Source of the DNA: Escherichia phage vB_EcoM_HZ_ZJUN4 | Length of the DNA: 64,000 bases | Direction: 5' to 3' (one strand) | Sequence record: PP216085 | In this document: positions 46,391-64,000 of the stretch, piece by piece | How the letters are laid out: every line of letters begins with the position of its first letter | Numbering within the stretch: the first letter of the stretch is position 1 | Translations under genes and position numbers: made by a program | Notes under the pieces: model-generated | What the model saw: only the letters and a program-made list of their open reading frames with translations | Told to the model about the DNA's origin: nothing | Databases searched by the model: none

Positions 46391-47941
46391 ATGATTAAGA
46401 ATGAAATTAAAATTCTAAGCGATATTGAACATATCAAAAAGCGTAGCGGCATGTATATTGGCTCTTCTGCTAATGAAATGCATGAGCGCTTTCTGTTTGG
46501 TAAATGGGAAAGTGTTCAGTATGTACCTGGTCTTGTTAAGCTTATTGATGAAATTATCGATAACTCAGTAGATGAAGGTATTCGTACTAAGTTTAAATTC
46601 GCAAATAAAATTAATGTTACTATTAAAAACAATCAAGTAACAGTTGAAGATAACGGTCGTGGTATTCCACAAGCGATGGTTAAAACACCTACCGGTGAAG
46701 AAATTCCTGGTCCTGTTGCTGCATGGACTATTCCAAAAGCAGGCGGTAACTTTGGTGATGATAAAGAACGCGTCACTGGCGGTATGAACGGTGTTGGTTC
46801 TAGTTTAACTAACATTTTTTCTGTGATGTTTGTCGGTGAAACTGGCGACGGTCAAAATAATATTGTAGTTCGTTGTTCAAATGGCATGGAAAATAAATCA
46901 TGGGAAACTATTCCTGGAAAATGGAAAGGAACTCGCGTTACTTTCATTCCTGATTTTATGTCATTTGAAACTAATGAGCTATCTCAAGTTTATCTTGACA
47001 TTACACTAGATCGTCTCCAGACACTTGCAGTAGTTTATCCTGATATTCAATTTACCTTTAATGGTAAAAAGGTTCAGGGTAATTTTAAGAAATATGCACG
47101 CCAATATGATGAACACGCTATCGTTCAAGAACAAGAAAATTGTTCTATTGCGGTTGGTCGTTCACCCGATGGTTTTCGTCAATTAACATACGTCAATAAC
47201 ATTCATACTAAGAATGGTGGCCATCACATTGACTGCGTTATGGATGATATTTGTGAAGACCTTATTCCACAAATCAAACGTAAGTTCAAAATTGACGTAA
47301 CTAAAGCACGTGTTAAAGAATGTTTGACTATCGTTATGTTTGTTCGTGATATGAAAAACATGCGATTTGATTCTCAAACTAAAGAGCGTCTGACTTCTCC
47401 ATTTGGTGAAATCCGTAGTCATATTCAGCTTGATGCTAAAAAGATTTCACGTGCTATTTTGAATAATGAAGCAATTTTAATGCCAATCATTGAAGCTGCC
47501 TTGGCTCGTAAATTGGCGGCAGAAAAAGCAGCAGAAACTAAAGCAGCTAAAAAGGCTTCTAAAGCTAAGGTTCATAAACATATTAAAGCGAATCTTTGCG
47601 GTAAAGATGCTGATACTACTCTTTTCTTGACTGAGGGTGATTCTGCTATCGGATATCTTATTGATGTTCGTGATAAAGAACTTCATGGTGGTTATCCATT
47701 GCGTGGTAAAGTTCTTAACAGTTGGGGTATGTCATATGCTGATATGCTTAAAAATAAAGAACTGTTTGATATTTGCGCAATCACTGGATTAGTTCTTGGT
47801 GAAAAGGCGTTTGAAGAAAAAGAAGATGGCGAGTGGTTTACTTTCGAACTAAATGGCGATACAATTATCGTAAATGAAAATGATGAAGTACAGATTAATG
47901 GTAAATGGATAACAGTAGGTGAATTACGAAAAAATCTATAA
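46391..47941 (+). CDS. 39: DNA topoisomerase II large subunit gp39 (GyrB-like ATPase)
   Basis: ATG after CGAGGATAA; GHKL ATPase motifs (IDNSVDEG, DNGRGIP); 516 aa. Confidence 0.92.
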   Translation: MIKNEIKILSDIEHIKKRSGMYIGSSANEMHERFLFGKWESVQYVPGLVKLIDEIIDNSVDEGIRTKFKFANKINVTIKNNQVTVEDNGRGIPQAMVKTPTGEEIPGPVAAWTIPKAGGNFGDDKERVTGGMNGVGSSLTNIFSVMFVGETGDGQNNIVVRCSNGMENKSWETIPGKWKGTRVTFIPDFMSFETNELSQVYLDITLDRLQTLAVVYPDIQFTFNGKKVQGNFKKYARQYDEHAIVQEQENCSIAVGRSPDGFRQLTYVNNIHTKNGGHHIDCVMDDICEDLIPQIKRKFKIDVTKARVKECLTIVMFVRDMKNMRFDSQTKERLTSPFGEIRSHIQLDAKKISRAILNNEAILMPIIEAALARKLAAEKAAETKAAKKASKAKVHKHIKANLCGKDADTTLFLTEGDSAIGYLIDVRDKELHGGYPLRGKVLNSWGMSYADMLKNKELFDICAITGLVLGEKAFEEKEDGEWFTFELNGDTIIVNENDEVQINGKWITVGELRKNL

Positions 47942-48737
47942 TGACTTAATAGTGCGGGGTAAAACCCGCGTTTCTAAATTTAAGGGTGAAATTCATCATA
48001 TCCTTCCAAGATCAATGGGAGGTTCTGATGATAAAGAAAATTTGGTGAAACTGACTTTTCGTGAACATTTTTTAGCACATTTTCTACTATATAAAATTCA
48101 TCGTAATCGTGAAATGGCATATGCGATGAATAGAATGTTAAACACTGAAAAATATTTACGTTCTAGTAAATTATATGAAATTACTAGAATTTACCATCAA
48201 AGAGCAGTATCTGAATGGTCAAAAAACTTTATGAAAGATAAAGTTTTAATGAGAAGTATTAAATCGGGTAAATGCGCCTTATTAATTAAAGGATCATTTA
48301 ACCCAAAGGAATGGTGCGGTGTTAATAAAGGTGTTAAGCTTCCTGGAATTAAAGGCATGACATGCTTTAAAAATGAAAAAGGCGAAGTTTTTCGTCTTCA
48401 TGTTAATGATCCACGCATTAAAGCTGAAAAATTAGTTGGTATTGGAAATACTGTTGCTGCTACTGCAAAAGCAGCTGAACTTGAAAAAGCGAAACCATGG
48501 TATAATAAATCAGCGACAAATCCAGAGGCTGTAAAATTAATACCAAATTTATATGAATGGTACGTCACGAAATATGACCCCGATCATTATAAACGAACGG
48601 GAGTTGCTAAATGGAAATCAGTTAATAATATAACTGTGAATTCAAAATTATTCGGCCGAGCATTTAATGAATTTAAACGCGGTTGGATTCCTGATGAAAA
48701 GTTCTATGAGGTGTATAATGAAATTTGTAAAAATTGA
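47919..48737 (+). CDS. mobA: HNH homing endonuclease MobA between genes 39 and 60
   Basis: 272 aa; HNH region EIHHILPRSMGGSDDKENLVKLTFREHFLAH; overlaps gene 39 end (23 nt) and gene 60 start (20 nt). Confidence 0.85.
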   Translation: MNYEKIYNDLIVRGKTRVSKFKGEIHHILPRSMGGSDDKENLVKLTFREHFLAHFLLYKIHRNREMAYAMNRMLNTEKYLRSSKLYEITRIYHQRAVSEWSKNFMKDKVLMRSIKSGKCALLIKGSFNPKEWCGVNKGVKLPGIKGMTCFKNEKGEVFRLHVNDPRIKAEKLVGIGNTVAATAKAAELEKAKPWYNKSATNPEAVKLIPNLYEWYVTKYDPDHYKRTGVAKWKSVNNITVNSKLFGRAFNEFKRGWIPDEKFYEVYNEICKN

Positions 48738-49250
48738 TTCTTCTAGCGTTGATATGAAAAAATATAAATTGCAGAACAATGTTCGTCGTTCTATTAAATC
48801 CTCTTCAATGAACTATGCGAATGTCGCTATTATGACAGACGCAGATCACGATGGATAGCCTTCGGGCTATCTATAGAAATACCTCATAATTAAGAGATTA
48901 TTGGATTAGGTTCTATTTATCCTTCTCTGCTCGGATTTTTTAGTAATTGGCCAGAATTGTTTGAACAAGGAAGAATTCGCTTTGTCAAAACTCCTGTAAT
49001 CATCGCTCAGGTCGGTAAAAAACAAGAATGGTTTTATACAGTCGCTGAATATGAGAGTGCCAAAGATGCTCTACCTAAACATAGCATCCGTTATATTAAA
49101 GGACTTGGCTCTTTGGAAAAATCTGAATATCGTGAGATGATTCAAAACCCAGTATATGATGTTGTTAAACTTCCTGAGAACTGGAAAGAGCTTTTTGAAA
49201 TGCTCATGGGAGATAATGCTGACCTTCGTAAAGAATGGATGAGCCAGTAG
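48718..49250 (+). CDS. 60: DNA topoisomerase II small subunit gp60, translated by ribosomal bypass of a 50-nt gap (segment 1 48718..48855, segment 2 48906..49250)
   Basis: Segment 1 ends ...DADHDG at GGA then TAG; matching GGA lies 47 nt downstream and the continuing frame encodes LGSIYPSLLGFFSNWPELFEQGRIRF...; matches recalled T4 gp60. Confidence 0.9.
48853..48908 (+). other. gene 60 translational bypass (hop) element: take-off GGA, UAG stop, CCUUCGGG hairpin, landing GGA
   Basis: GGATAGCCTTCGGGCTATCTATAGAAATACCTCATAATTAAGAGATTATTGGATTA read directly. Confidence 0.9.
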
Positions 49251-49279
49251 TTTACTTTACCACAAGGACGTGGTATAAT
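49249..49279 (+). promoter_or_regulatory. T4-type early promoter
   Basis: GTTTACTTT...CGTGGTATAAT. Confidence 0.6.
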
Positions 49280-49518: not shown

Positions 49519-51696
49519 ATGATTATCACCACTGAAAAAGAAACTATTCTTGGTAATGGTTCTAAATCAAAAGCATTTAGCATCACAGCATCTCCTAAAG
49601 TATTTAAAATTCTGTCATCTGATTTGTATACAAACAAGATTCGCGCAGTAGTACGTGAATTGATTACTAATATGATTGATGCCCATGCTCTTAATGGAAA
49701 TCCTGAAAAATTTATCATACAAGTTCCAGGACGATTAGACCCACGATTTGTTTGCCGAGATTTTGGTCCGGGTATGAGCGATTTTGATATTCAGGGTGAT
49801 GATAATTCTCCTGGGTTGTATAATTCATACTTTAGTTCATCTAAGGCTGAATCTAACGATTTCATTGGCGGATTTGGTTTAGGTTCTAAATCTCCGTTTA
49901 GTTATACTGATACATTTAGTATTACTTCATATCATAAAGGTGAAATTCGTGGTTATGTAGCTTACATGGATGGTGACGGTCCGCAGATTAAACCTACATT
50001 CGTAAAAGAAATGGGTCCAAATGATAAAACTGGTATTGAAATCGTAGTTCCAGTTGAAGAAAAAGACTTTAGAAACTTTGCTTATGAAGTTTCTTATATC
50101 ATGCGACCATTCAAAGATTTGGCTATTATTAATGGTCTTGACCGTGAAATTGATTATTTTCCGGATTTTGATGACTATTACGGCGTAAATCCAGAAAGAT
50201 ATTGGCCAGATCGTGGTGGATTGTATGCTATCTATGGCGGTATTGTTTATCCTATTGATGGTGTTATTAGAGACCGTAACTGGTTAAGCATCCGCAATGA
50301 AGTGAATTATATTAAGTTTCCAATGGGTTCACTTGATATTGCTCCATCGCGTGAGGCTCTTTCACTAGATGATCGTACTCGTAAAAATATTATTGAGCGT
50401 GTTAAAGAGCTCAGTGAGAAGGCATTTAATGAAGATGTAAAACGATTTAAAGAATCTACATCTCCTCGTCATACATACCGTGAATTGATGAAGATGGGGT
50501 ATTCTGCTCGAGATTATATGATTAGTAATTCAGTCAAATTCACGACTAAAAATCTGTCATATAAGAAGATGCAGAGCATGTTTGAACCTGACAGTAAGTT
50601 ATGCAATGCAGGGGTTGTGTATGAAGTAAATCTTGACCCTCGACTGAAACGCATTAAGCAAAGTCATGAAACTTCAGCCGTTGCATCAAGCTATCGTCTG
50701 TTTGGTATTAATACGACAAAAATTAATATTGTTATTGATAATACTAAAAATCGTGTTAATATTGTCCGTGGATTAGCACGCGCGTTAGATGATAGTGAAT
50801 TTAATAACACCTTAAATATTCATCACAATGAGCGGCTTCTGTTTATTAATCCGGAAGTAGAATCGCAGATTGATTTGCTTCCTGATATTATGGCAATGTT
50901 TGAAAGTGATGAAGTTAACATTCATTATTTATCAGAAATTGAAGCTTTAGTTAAAAGTTATATTCCAAAGGCAGTAAAAAGTACAGCTCCTCGTCCTAAA
51001 GCTGCTACTGCATTTAAGTTTGAAATTAAAGACGGGCGCTGGGAAAAAGAGGAATTGTTTACGCTCACATCAGAAGCAGATGAAATTACTGGTTATGTAG
51101 CATACATGCATCGTTCTGATATTTTCTCTATGGATGGTACTACATCGCTTTGTCATCCATCTACGAGTATTTTGACTCGTATGGCTAATCTTATTGGCAT
51201 TAATGAATTTTATGTTATTCGTCCGCTTTTGCAGAAAAAGGTAAAAGAACTTGGTCAATGCCAATGTATTTTTGAAACTTTGCGTGATTTATATGTAGAT
51301 GCTTTTGATGATGTAGATTATGATAAGTATGTAGGTTATTCAAGTTCAGCTAAACGATATATTGATAAAATTATCAAGTATCCTGAGTTAGATTTTATGA
51401 TGAAGTACTTCAGTGTAGATGAAGTTTCTGAAGAATATACACGACTCGCTAATATGGTTAGTTCATTACAGGGTGTATATTTCAACGGTGGAAAAGATAC
51501 CATCGGTCATGACATCTGGACAGTAACTAATCTTTTTGATGTATTATCAAATAATGCTTCAAAAAACAGTGATAAAATGGTTGCTGAGTTTACCAAGAAA
51601 TTCCGTATTGTTTCCGACTTCATCGGTTATCGCAACTCTTTAAGTGATGATGAAGTTTCCCAAATCGCTAAAACTATGAAGGCCCTTGCGGCCTAA
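49519..51696 (+). CDS. rIIA: rIIA protein
   Basis: 725 aa; N-terminal GHKL-like ATPase motifs ([25 protein letters not shown]); followed by rIIB. Confidence 0.9.
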
Positions 51697-60402: not shown

Positions 60403-61059
60403 TTATTTAGCCCTTCCTAATATTCTGGCCGCCTGAGAACATATTGATTCAAGGCGGTCATTACTTATATGATCATTTCTATACCAGTACATGGTTATTG
60501 TTCCAGCATAGATATTATCCAAATTGAAATATGGACAACTGTACATGTAATTTATTTCAGGAGTAGGCTTTTTAGTTGGTAAAAAAGCAAATTTTGAGTC
60601 GGAATAATAATGACGTCCATTTAAATGAACTGTATATTCATCCATAGTTTTATCAACAGGATATCCTCCAAGTGATTTTTCACTTATTGTTGAAGGTAAT
60701 TTTCCTTCATATGCTATAATATCAACAAAATAGTTTAAGTTTTTAGGGCGGAAAGAATACACCGCACTAAAGTCTGCCTCAGATGATATGTGAACTATCT
60801 GGAGTTGTTCCAGGGCGACAGATTCAAAGCGTGCATTTCTTTCCTTTTCAATAATTTCACTGTATGTTTCATACTTTGATTGCTTATAGTACTCAAAGAA
60901 ACTATCTCCCCTATACCAAACAATCGCCATTATAAACAAAAGAATTACGACAGCTACTCGGGAAGCAAGAACCTTCCCGGTAGCGTTATCTTTGAACAAG
61001 CGATCTAGAACACCCAACAGAATATCAGAGGGCGAAAATGATATTCTAGGTGCTGCCAT
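60403..61059 (-). CDS. t: holin T
   Basis: 218 aa MAAPRISFSPSDILLGVLDRLFKDNATGKVLASRVAVVILLFIMAIVWYRGD; single TMD plus large periplasmic domain; matches recalled T4 gpt. Confidence 0.95.
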   Translation of the reverse strand: MAAPRISFSPSDILLGVLDRLFKDNATGKVLASRVAVVILLFIMAIVWYRGDSFFEYYKQSKYETYSEIIEKERNARFESVALEQLQIVHISSEADFSAVYSFRPKNLNYFVDIIAYEGKLPSTISEKSLGGYPVDKTMDEYTVHLNGRHYYSDSKFAFLPTKKPTPEINYMYSCPYFNLDNIYAGTITMYWYRNDHISNDRLESICSQAARILGRAK

Positions 61060-61089
61060 AGACCCTCCTTTTAAGGGTATTTATTCAAA

Positions 61090-61866
61090 TTATACTCTTG
61101 GACCATATATTGCTCCAACGTTTTGCCATGTCGGTGTAGACCCTATGACGGCATAACCGGCAGCTCCGCCATCGTATTCATATCCTTGACCACGAATATT
61201 ACATCTACCTCCCGCTGAACCTACTTCACCGCCGTTTCCACCATTATAGATACCATTCACGGATCCTGAGCCAGGTGCAGAAATAGTACCGCCAGTCGCG
61301 CCTGATTGCATATCAATAGATCCGCCTGGCGCACCAAAAGGACGACCGCCACCGCCGCCAAAGGTCAATCTCATTTGTGAAAAAGGAGAATAATATCCGC
61401 CGCCACCGCCGCCGCCGCCGCCTGCAATAGCTCCGCCATTATTAATTCTTAGTCTCCCACCAATATCGTTTTGAATACAATGACCTCCAGCTGAGCCAGG
61501 ACTATTGCTACCGCCATTACCTCCACGACCATACATCGTTACGCCATGTATATTTAACTGAACATATTCATTTGGTGTATCTCCGTACATGAAGAATAAA
61601 GGAACATCTTTAGAATATGATACTAAATCTCCAGTGATATTAAACACTATAGGTGCACTACCTGCCTCAAAACATCTATCTCGGAACCATTGGCCATTGA
61701 AGTTATGGTCTGCTCCAAGCGTGTGAATTATTTCAACAGACCGCCCGTTCATATTACTCATCCAAAACGGAATACCCATTCTCAATCGTTGGGCGGCGCC
61801 GCCCATCCAATTTTGTCCTGTATTAACTACTGCAGACGATCCTACCCACGGTCCTGTTACTGCCAT
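61090..61866 (-). CDS. 38: long tail fiber adhesin gp38, T2-type with glycine-rich motifs
   Basis: Track ORF 61090..61878 (TTG) trimmed to ATG after GGAGG; polyglycine runs [11 protein letters not shown] and [13 protein letters not shown] separating variable segments. Confidence 0.85.
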
Positions 61867-61878
61867 ATAAACCTCCAA

Positions 61879-61892
61879 GGGGCCGAAGCCCC
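61879..61892 (-). other. GGGGCUUCGGCCCC hairpin in the 37-38 intergenic region
   Basis: UUCG-loop hairpin between gp37 stop and gp38 RBS; no U-tract. Confidence 0.4.
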
Positions 61893-61897
61893 TCTTA

Positions 61898-64000
61898 TTA
61901 TTTTAACAATGATTTAACTAATGCTTTAAGTTCTTCAATTTCTGATTTAAGTTCCGCAATTTCTGCAGTATGCTCATTGATTGCAGCTGTATTTAAACCA
62001 ATTACGCCGTTATAGTTCAAACGAAGTAAAGCTTCACCATCAGGGTCACCTTCAACTAATTCTGGTAAAATAGCTTGAACTTCTTGAGCTATCAAACCGG
62101 CGTTAGGTTCCCATTTCTGATTGCCTTCTTCATCTAGGCCTCGCTTCTGCATATAAGTGTAACCGTTAATTTTAGAAAGCTTCTCAGAAGCATTTTCAAA
62201 TTTAACAAGGTCTTTTTTAACACGAATATCAGAGCGGACATAAACGTCACGAACAAATGTTGAATAGTTGTCATTCGCCTGAATCAAATGACCATGTGAA
62301 ATAATAGCTTTGTCAACTTCAGTCCATAAAGCAGCACCAACAGACCACAATCCTGGGTGTTCTTGATGGAAAACCCCCCATGACGCAATATGTTGTCCGT
62401 TAGCAAACATGTTAATACGACCATCACCGCCATGGACTAAACCAGTATCATTATCACCGATGGCGATAGATGCTCCGCCCCATACCGGAATTGTACCGAC
62501 ACCCAAGTTAACACCAGCGCGAAGACCAGCCGGAGCTTTAAAATCGCCATTAGCTTGAAACACAAATATTGCATTAGGATGACTGCTATCTCCACTTTCC
62601 GCAGAACCAACACGAATTACTGCATTTCCCCAAGTAGCATCTCCGCCCAATCTAATAATACCAAAATCTGCCTTTGTTGCATATCCTTCGTTAATGATTT
62701 GGCTTCTTCCTTTAATTATAGGCATATAACTATCTTTCGGAACAGATTCACCAAAGTCAACGAAGAATGGGGCTTCTGTTTGCCATTGATTACTATATCC
62801 GTGGCCTTGGGTAGCTGTCCATTGTCTTCCGTTTAAATATAAACGATAAAAATTTAATGAAGCTGCAGTAGCTTGATTTTTAACATTAAAGTCAATATCG
62901 CCTACACTATTAAGAGTAATTCCTGCCGTAGTCTTAAAATTATAAAATGAAGCAGTGTCATCTGCCCCGCCTTTACCGATGTACCATGAATTCGCTCCAC
63001 CTGATGTTCCAAGTAAATAACCAGAATCATTTTCATCGGCAGCAATGTTAATAGCGTCAGAGCCTCTTTTAACGATTAATTTGCCGGTCATCGTATCGCC
63101 TTCTTTAGCAACACGGGAGGCAATAGCATCATGAAGGTTGGTTATATCACCAGCAGAGCTAAATAATTTCCAAATATCAGAGAAGATATTACCATTTCGA
63201 GCAATAGTAGCTTCGCCGCCACCGACCTGTACGTTATCCGGGAAGTTAACTGTACCGTCCTGATTAAAACGAGACGTATGGCCTTGTGAACCATCTTCTT
63301 TCAGATGATGAATAACGAATGTACCCGAATTAATTTCAGTACCTAAAGACCAAACAGCTTTGCCGTTTAAAAACTTCTGTTTAACAATAGGATAATATTT
63401 GCTTATAGCATCATCATCAATTTCCTGGAAAATAGGAGCTGCTTGAACATACTGAATGTCATAACCACCAGCGCCTGCGCCATGACCAGTAAATTTAATA
63501 TAGCCGTTTGCTGCGAACGTATTGTAACTTGATTGTAAATCTGGAATAGTAACTTTACCAGTATCTAAAGCCATACTAAACGGGCGAAGTGGACCGATAT
63601 CACCATATTTACCTTCACCGTAAGCAGTTGGAATAATATGAAGACTTCCTTCTGAACGTCTAAAAATGGCTCCATAATCTGCGTTCCAAATACGAAGAGC
63701 ATTCACTGCTCCAGATGAAATTTCGCCTGTTGTGTGAACTCCTCTATTTCCAGCAGTAACACCGGATGATTCAAATGAACCATTGACGTTCATTTCTACT
63801 TCGCCGGTAGTAAGTCTTTGAATATAGCTCATCCAACTAGTTGCGTCAGAAATTTCCATGACATTTTTACGATTACCTACGCTAGGATTAGTAAACGTAT
63901 TACCCCATACAGAAATTGTCATATTATCAACTGAACTGCTACCAGTTGTGTTACCTCTAAACATCAGCGTAGAAGCATTATTACGACCATCAATATTAAC
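61898..64000 (-). CDS. 37: long tail fiber distal subunit gp37 (C-terminal part; 5' end beyond window)
   Basis: ORF open to the window edge; C-terminal segment SDIRVKKD...[14 protein letters not shown] resembles an intramolecular-chaperone/auto-cleavage domain. Confidence 0.9.

Follow-up and report, generated by a model that had tools for sequence, protein, structure and literature searches.

We conclude that the DNA analysed here almost certainly carries the programmed translational bypass of phage T4 gene 60, borne by a phage of the T4 clade. The window, by which we mean the whole stretch of DNA, comprises 64,000 nt of Escherichia phage vB_EcoM_HZ_ZJUN4 (sequence record PP216085), and all coordinates are positions within it; its source is evidently a T4-like phage (Tequatrovirus), distinct from T4 itself. 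Among programmed translational bypasses, the gene 60 hop is the founding case, and it has been taken apart by genetics, kinetics and cryo-EM. Earlier studies of the T4 element reportedly include those by Huang et al. in 1988, Weiss et al. in 1990 and Samatova et al. in 2014. Agirrezabala et al. 2017 (PMC5462505) and Klimova et al. 2019 (PMC6551183) also belong to this literature. The bypass element is already known and adds no new biology, and the evidence points to no new bypass mechanism; what we document for this phage is the anatomy of the locus, its identity with the T4 element, its collinear alignment with uninterrupted homologues, the way in which the bypass signals are conserved and covary, the boundaries of the cassette that carries them and the mosaic divergence around it.

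On the + strand, the genes follow one another in the order 39, mobA, 60, rIIA.1 and rIIA, and the features of the locus are collected in Table 1. Gene 39 gives Pfam matches to HATPase_c and DNA_gyraseB, and the start of gene 60 coincides with that annotated in T4. The take-off and landing codons are matched GGA triplets decoded by the same tRNA-Gly; because 47 nt (48856-48902) separate them, the gap, counted from the first base of UAG to the last of the landing GGA, has a length of 50 nt. A sequence-only reading had placed a hop at 48853-48908, with the frame ending in ...TDADHDG at a GGA followed by UAG and resuming at the codon after an identical GGA 47 nt downstream, and from take-off codon through resume codon this proved exact to the base. 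The resumed frame remains open for 114 codons, giving a joined product of 46 + 114 codons, or 160 aa, in which exon 2 supplies what remains of the TOPRIM domain, along with the C-terminal region, and matches Pfam TOPRIM_C. Almost all large ORFs of the window lie on the + strand, at 346-58310, and three ORFs at 60403-63964 lie on the - strand; ARAGORN found no tRNA genes in the whole 64-kb window. Directly after the gene 60 stop, at 49251-49279 and upstream of rIIA.1 and rIIA, lies the strongest sigma-70-like match of the region (TTTACT-17 nt-TATAAT with an upstream TG, 10/12), and the total of promoter-like sites in the region shows no excess over shuffle expectation.

Table 1. Features of the gene 39-mobA-gene 60 locus (window positions)
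Feature	Position	Strand	Remarks
Gene 39, topoisomerase II large subunit N-terminal part	46391..47941	+	516 aa
mobA/bypass cassette	47810..48914	+	1,105 nt, inserted after gene 39 codon 473; absent from BMB16; boundaries by DNA alignment
gp39 C-terminal extension	47810-47938	+	last 43 codons; cassette-encoded
mobA, intact HNH homing endonuclease gene	47919..48737	+	272 aa; GTG start
Shine-Dalgarno GAGG	48708..48711	+	6 nt 5' of gene 60 ATG (48718); sequence inspection
Gene 60 exon 1	48718..48855	+	46 codons, MKFVKIDSSSVDMKKYKLQNNVRRSIKSSSMNYANVAIMTDADHDG; last codon is the take-off GGA
Nascent-peptide bypass signal	48757..48807	+	KKYKLQNNVRRSIKSSS, codons 14-30
5' stem-loop upstream of take-off hairpin	48816..48843	+	RNAfold centroid of 48800-48930
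Take-off stem-loop	48851..48874	+	10 bp + UUCG tetraloop; 5' arm contains GGA + UAG
Take-off GGA	48853-48855	+	directly followed by UAG stop 48856-48858
Coding gap	48856..48905	+	50 nt; stops in all three frames
Cognate GGG inside take-off hairpin	48864-48866	+	non-scanned
Mini Shine-Dalgarno GAG	48894..48896	+	6 nt 5' of landing codon
Landing GGA	48903-48905	+	resume codon UUA (TTA) 48906-48908
Gene 60 exon 2	48906..49250	+	114 codons + stop (49248-49250), LGSIYPSLLGFFSNWPELFEQGRIRF...
Predicted hop junction peptide			...AIMTDADHDGLGSIYPSLLGFF...; spans take-off/landing

One indication that the two reading frames encode a single protein comes from homologues in which the gene is uninterrupted. 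The joined 160-aa product aligns without a gap across the junction both with T6 gp39 (PDB 8ylu) and with the 605-aa gp39 of BMB16. The junction falls within the invariant TOPRIM motif, IMTDADHDG being continued as LGSIYPSLLGFF, and no residue is gained or lost there; 128 of 134 aa are identical to the uninterrupted gp39 in an ungapped alignment that runs across the junction. Alignment at the DNA level places the 50 nt as an interval that is absent from the BMB16 gene. On the gene 39 side, codons 1-473 encode a protein identical to BMB16 gp39 at all 473 positions as far as ...LGEKA, after which the two diverge. The codons that flank the gap are synonymously recoded, reading GGA...TTA GGT TCT in the window (48853-48914) and GGT CTA GGA AGC in BMB16; this recoding creates the matched GGA pair and fits the published idea of an altered MobA target site.

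One could suppose instead that the gene is simply split, or is a pseudogene, with the UAG at 48856 terminating translation to leave a 46-aa peptide and, beyond it, either an independently initiated C-terminal fragment or nothing. Many automatic pipelines annotate it in this way, a 97-aa ORF begins at an in-frame TTG at 48957, and an in-frame AUU lies at 48900, after GAG; moreover, some 40-50% of T4 ribosomes fail to finish the hop (PMC6551183). However, the break lies inside the invariant motif DxDxDG/xGS (the slash marks it), so neither fragment would possess a complete motif, and near its 5' end exon 2 lacks an ATG or GTG preceded by a Shine-Dalgarno sequence. The gap and its signals are also kept, with compensatory change, in 53 phage records from four clades, and published work on T4 has found the product of 160 aa and just one landing site (10.1101/2022.08.31.505936, PMC6551183). 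We therefore regard a split gene as very improbable.

Conventional recoding, by readthrough of the stop codon, by a single +1 or -1 frameshift or by both, might be proposed on the ground that a 50-nt gap amounts to a net +2/-1 change of frame. The frame of exon 1 meets the UAG at 48856 and a further stop six codons on, the frame of exon 2 is closed by stops until about 48891, which leaves it open for just some 15 nt ahead of the landing codon, and stops close the third frame too; with stops in all three frames of the gap, no single shift connects the two ORFs. A product made in this way would carry extra residues within the TOPRIM motif, and the gaps of homologous cassettes, at 48, 50, 51 and 52 nt, cover all three frame offsets, which fits a hop that is independent of frame and not frameshifting. 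This makes readthrough or a simple frameshift scarcely conceivable as the route by which exon 2 is reached.

Translational bypassing at this site is further supported by identity with the characterised T4 element. From 48442 to 48964, a segment that spans the end of mobA, exon 1 and the gap, and the opening 59 nt of exon 2, there are zero differences from T4, and within exon 1 and the gap there are no substitutions relative to either T4T or ESh36. In both the T4 RefSeq record (NC_000866) and T4T (HM137666), gene 60 is entered as a CDS in two pieces that maps to 48718..49250, together with a 50-nt misc_feature, 'non-coding translational bypass region', that maps to 48856..48905. The spliced protein is identical at 160 of 160 positions to the gp60 part of PDB 8yo3, which occupies residues 517-676 in its T4 gp39-gp60 chain; this structure was obtained with a codon-optimised construct in which the annotated proteins are fused, and it supports the predicted product and not the hop itself. 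The 46-aa peptide of exon 1 is that of PDB 5np6 chain C, the nascent chain of a ribosome stalled at take-off. The phage thus shares with T4 its exon 1, gap, first 59 nt of exon 2, 160-aa product and gene order, but its flanking gene 39 and rIIA differ from those of T4T by 3.7-3.9%, and mobA, which is intact here and in T4T, is broken in the T4 RefSeq record. The best 24-kb matches that the phage collection offers share about 95-96% identity with the window. This identity and annotation, together with the ungapped uninterrupted homologues, bear out the proposal made from the letters alone that the site is the classic gene 60 ribosome hop.

The accessory signals known from T4 can be located individually. 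The nascent-peptide signal that had been claimed upstream of the take-off site occupies residues 14-30, and the key residues Y16, Q19, V22, R24, Y33, M39, T40 and H44 are all found in exon 1. The signal is encoded by the cassette and is not ancestral to the topoisomerase, gp60 residues 1 to about 26 having no counterpart in uninterrupted gp39. A CCUUCGGG stem-loop had also been described as following the UAG; it is present, but it is only the tip of a longer hairpin that includes the take-off GGA and the UAG themselves. This take-off hairpin has a predicted energy of -14.7 kcal/mol (z = -4.75), and none of 200 shuffled sequences folds equally well. For the 5' stem-loop, whose sequence is the same in T4, the reported role is to promote forward movement (10.1101/2022.08.31.505936, PMC6551183). 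The mini Shine-Dalgarno GAG sits in a tract (48877-48902) that is 81% A+U as compared with 65% for the whole window. The 3' hairpin published as a barrier to forward slippage after landing folds weakly (-5.5 kcal/mol) in a sequence that equals that of T4 up to 48964; as it is only weakly predicted, we do not count it as independently confirmed here.

The configuration of codons by itself carries little information. A bare pattern, in which a stop is preceded by a codon that appears again 20-80 nt 3' with at least 100 open codons after it, has 43 instances on the + strand of the window, mostly at ordinary gene junctions in this tightly packed genome, so that a matched codon with a downstream ORF is not beyond chance in so gene-dense a window; we dropped this pattern as evidence. 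The case for bypassing rests instead on collinearity with uninterrupted homologues, on the lack of a simpler recoding route, on the accessory signals and on identity with the characterised T4 element, and no feature of the sequence argues against it.

The gene 60 bypass region was found in 53 records of the phage collection, made up of 41 from the T4 clade (at least 98.6% identity), five from Proteus phages, six from S16-like phages and one from a Shewanella phage. These counts were taken from the annotated collection since a pattern scan of IMG/VR added nothing: a degenerate pattern of the flanks, ATGACNGAYGCNGAYCAYGAYGG-N45-75-ATTTATCCTTC, had 0 matches among the IMG/VR viral contigs, though it matches the window. 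That the hairpin should be a mere intrinsic terminator or mRNA-stability element, and the 50-nt insertion an artefact of sequencing or assembly, is the least probable of all the explanations we weighed. Hairpins of the CC-UUCG-GG type do recur in T4 as stabilising or terminator motifs (10.1101/2022.08.31.505936); a terminator scan nevertheless found no site at this hairpin, as there is no T-run after the stem, and 26 independently deposited records share a 146-nt stretch of this region at 100% identity, while 41 share it at not less than 98.6%.

We aligned nine representative cassettes from four phage clades, which include six distinct hairpin sequences. In all nine, UAG directly follows the take-off codon, the landing codon is preceded at a distance of 5-7 nt by GAG or AAG, the gap's 3' portion is AU-rich, and the resumed frame reads xGSI(Y/F)PSLL; the pairs of Gly codons are matched or wobble-matched (GGA/GGA, GGG/GGA, GGU/GGC and GGU/GGU). 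The cassettes of Proteus (Bragavirus), Salmonella S16 (Gelderlandvirus) and Shewanella Thanatos-1 phages break the TOPRIM motif at the same position and share with that of the window the UAG after take-off, a UUCG-type hairpin that takes in the take-off codon, the Shine-Dalgarno-like triplet and the AU-rich 3' gap, but they differ in their codon pairs (GGG/GGA, GGU/GGC and GGU/GGU), in gap length (48, 51 and 52 nt) and in overall sequence, with 73-81% nucleotide identity. The take-off hairpin is fully paired in 6/6 of the distinct homologous sequences, and the pair opposite the wobble base of the take-off codon is A-U, U-A or G-C among them, a compensatory change by which this pair tracks the take-off codon. 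With only six distinct sequences, and with seven of the ten pairs invariant, we take the covariation as supportive and not as decisive. These comparative results reproduce those of Manning & Atkins (10.1101/2022.08.31.505936).

Within the T4 clade, Salmonella phage GRNsp7 (ON720975.1; 467-517 of the compared locus) has a 51-nt gap owing to an extra T in GAGATTTATTGGA, as a result of which exon 2 lies in frame 0 relative to exon 1 and GAG lies 7 nt from the landing codon. This could be a natural variant that reflects tolerance of spacing, or it could be a homopolymer sequencing error. A more distant likeness is offered by the mitochondrial 'byp' elements of the yeast Magnusiomyces capitatus, which we compared by literature description and which, as far as the account in 10.1101/2022.08.31.505936 goes, involve programmed hopping over inserts of 27-55 nt with matched take-off and landing codons and a next codon that is slow to decode. 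They differ in that their sequences are unrelated, their 81 inserts in 12 genes spread like GC-cluster elements, and no homing endonuclease or nascent-peptide signal is known for them.

Conservation of this kind also bears on whether the 50 nt might be removed at the level of RNA, by a tiny intron or by processing and ligation, to leave a contiguous mRNA for translation. The gap lies exactly between two codons of a conserved motif, and T4-like phages carry self-splicing group I introns. Yet 50 nt falls far below the length that a group I or group II intron requires. The persistence of the gap sequence in T4 mRNA is, moreover, said to have been reported by Huang et al. in Science in 1988. At Rfam gathering thresholds there were no matches anywhere in the 64-kb window, and hence no known RNA family or intron that overlaps the gap, and the matched codons, the stop, the Shine-Dalgarno-like triplet and the nascent-peptide signal are all conserved, though none of them would have a role in splicing. 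When unspliced mRNA was translated in vitro, the full product was obtained (PMC6551183). Removal from RNA is accordingly an extremely improbable account of how the two exons are joined.

By analogy with published experiments on T4, one can envision how gene 60 of this phage would be read as a programmed bypass. Ribosomes would translate the 46 codons of exon 1, whereupon the nascent peptide, through KKYKLQNNVRRSIKSSS and neighbouring residues, would grip the exit tunnel and retain the peptidyl-tRNA-Gly on the ribosome; in T4, the nascent peptide holds the peptidyl transferase centre inactive and the ribosome is in a rolled, hyper-rotated state (PMC5462505). The top of the take-off hairpin would form in the A site at GGA-UAG, where it would block release factor, near-cognate tRNA and readthrough. 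EF-G, with GTP hydrolysis, would then start the sliding, the anticodon would leave GGA, and the 50 nt would be crossed without decoding. Behind the ribosome, the 5' stem-loop and the take-off hairpin would fold again and thereby aid its movement, the former giving directionality. Pairing of GAG with the anti-Shine-Dalgarno sequence, 6 nt before the second GGA, together with the downstream hairpin, would help the tRNA to re-pair at the landing codon, and decoding would resume at UUA to yield the 160-aa gp60. About half of T4 ribosomes, ∼50-60%, complete the hop (10.1101/2022.08.31.505936, PMC6551183).

The bypass does not stand alone but forms part of a mobile cassette, the insertion of which divided what was ancestrally one gene 39 into genes 39 and 60. 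In order, the cassette comprises the C-terminal extension of gp39, mobA, the N-terminal extension of gp60, the 50-nt gap and nine recoded nucleotides after the landing codon. The 46-aa N-terminal extension of gp60 contains the whole of the nascent-peptide signal as well as a region of homologous replacement, in which the cassette segment SSSMNYANVAIMTDADHDG substitutes for the deleted topoisomerase segment AENLNYHNIAIMTDADHDG. The mobA gene overlaps its neighbours out of frame, by 23 nt with gene 39 and by 20 nt with gene 60; its GTG start and 23-bp overlap match those already described (PMC2988022). The Pfam HNH match of MobA is weak (E = 7e-4, 20.1 bits against a curated cut-off of 21.4), and the protein differs from T4T MobA at 2 aa. 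In the T4 RefSeq record NC_000866 (1842-2638 of the compared locus), mobA is broken into 'mobA' and '60.1', with about 11 single-base indels relative to the window, which reflects either pseudogenisation in a laboratory strain or old sequencing errors.

In size and position, the cassette fits what has been published for clade 1 of these elements, namely a length of 1097-1106 nt with an extra 9 nt after the landing codon and a point of insertion between codons 466 and 473 of the uninterrupted gene (10.1101/2022.08.31.505936), that of the window being after codon 473. We found no structural difference from the MobA/bypass 'clade 1' family (Bonocora et al. 2011, PNAS; Manning & Atkins 2022), of which this phage is one more carrier, but its backbone lies nearer to the uninterrupted BMB16 (1.6% in gene 39) than to T4 (3.7%). 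For T4 and T2, MobA is described as nicking the target where it is uninterrupted, and protection by the bypass sequence is reported (Bonocora et al. 2011, as cited in 10.1101/2022.08.31.505936). According to that literature, so far as the citing account conveys it, the gap interrupts the target site of MobA itself and would for that reason protect the genome that carries it; by analogy, the same protection may be expected for the phage described here.

The divergence of the locus from T4T is mosaic. Within the cassette (47810-48914) it is 0.45%, as compared with 3.66% in the ancestral part of gene 39 (46391-47809) and 3.86% in rIIA (49519-51696), so that the cassette is about 8-fold less diverged than its flanks. 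Gene 39 of the window is in turn 1.56% diverged from the uninterrupted BMB16 gene, and thus nearer to it than to T4T. At the left boundary of the insertion (47810) the break in divergence is sharp, and on the right, low divergence persists through the remainder of gene 60 (0.9%), which suggests one-sided co-conversion. We infer that a mosaic of this kind is the pattern to be expected if a homing element had moved between backbones. On balance, we lean slightly towards a comparatively recent natural homing event in which a T4-type mobA/bypass cassette, possibly with co-conversion of the remainder of gene 60, entered a Tequatrovirus backbone other than that of T4.

The practical value of this locus lies in annotation, because many deposited records split gene 60. 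Gene callers that assume collinear decoding fragment an essential topoisomerase subunit or call it a pseudogene, as had been anticipated from the sequence, and the deposited records bear this out: gene 60 is divided into two or three CDS, labelled hypothetical or 'frameshift', in ESh36, G50 ('frameshift'), GRNsp7, S16, the Proteus phages and others, and a joined CDS is given only for T4, T4T, HY01 and a few other records. For the biology of the T-even phages, the locus supplies a further observation on how the mobA cassette has spread among them and, if the homing interpretation is true, the window could help to map the co-conversion tracts of this element in nature.
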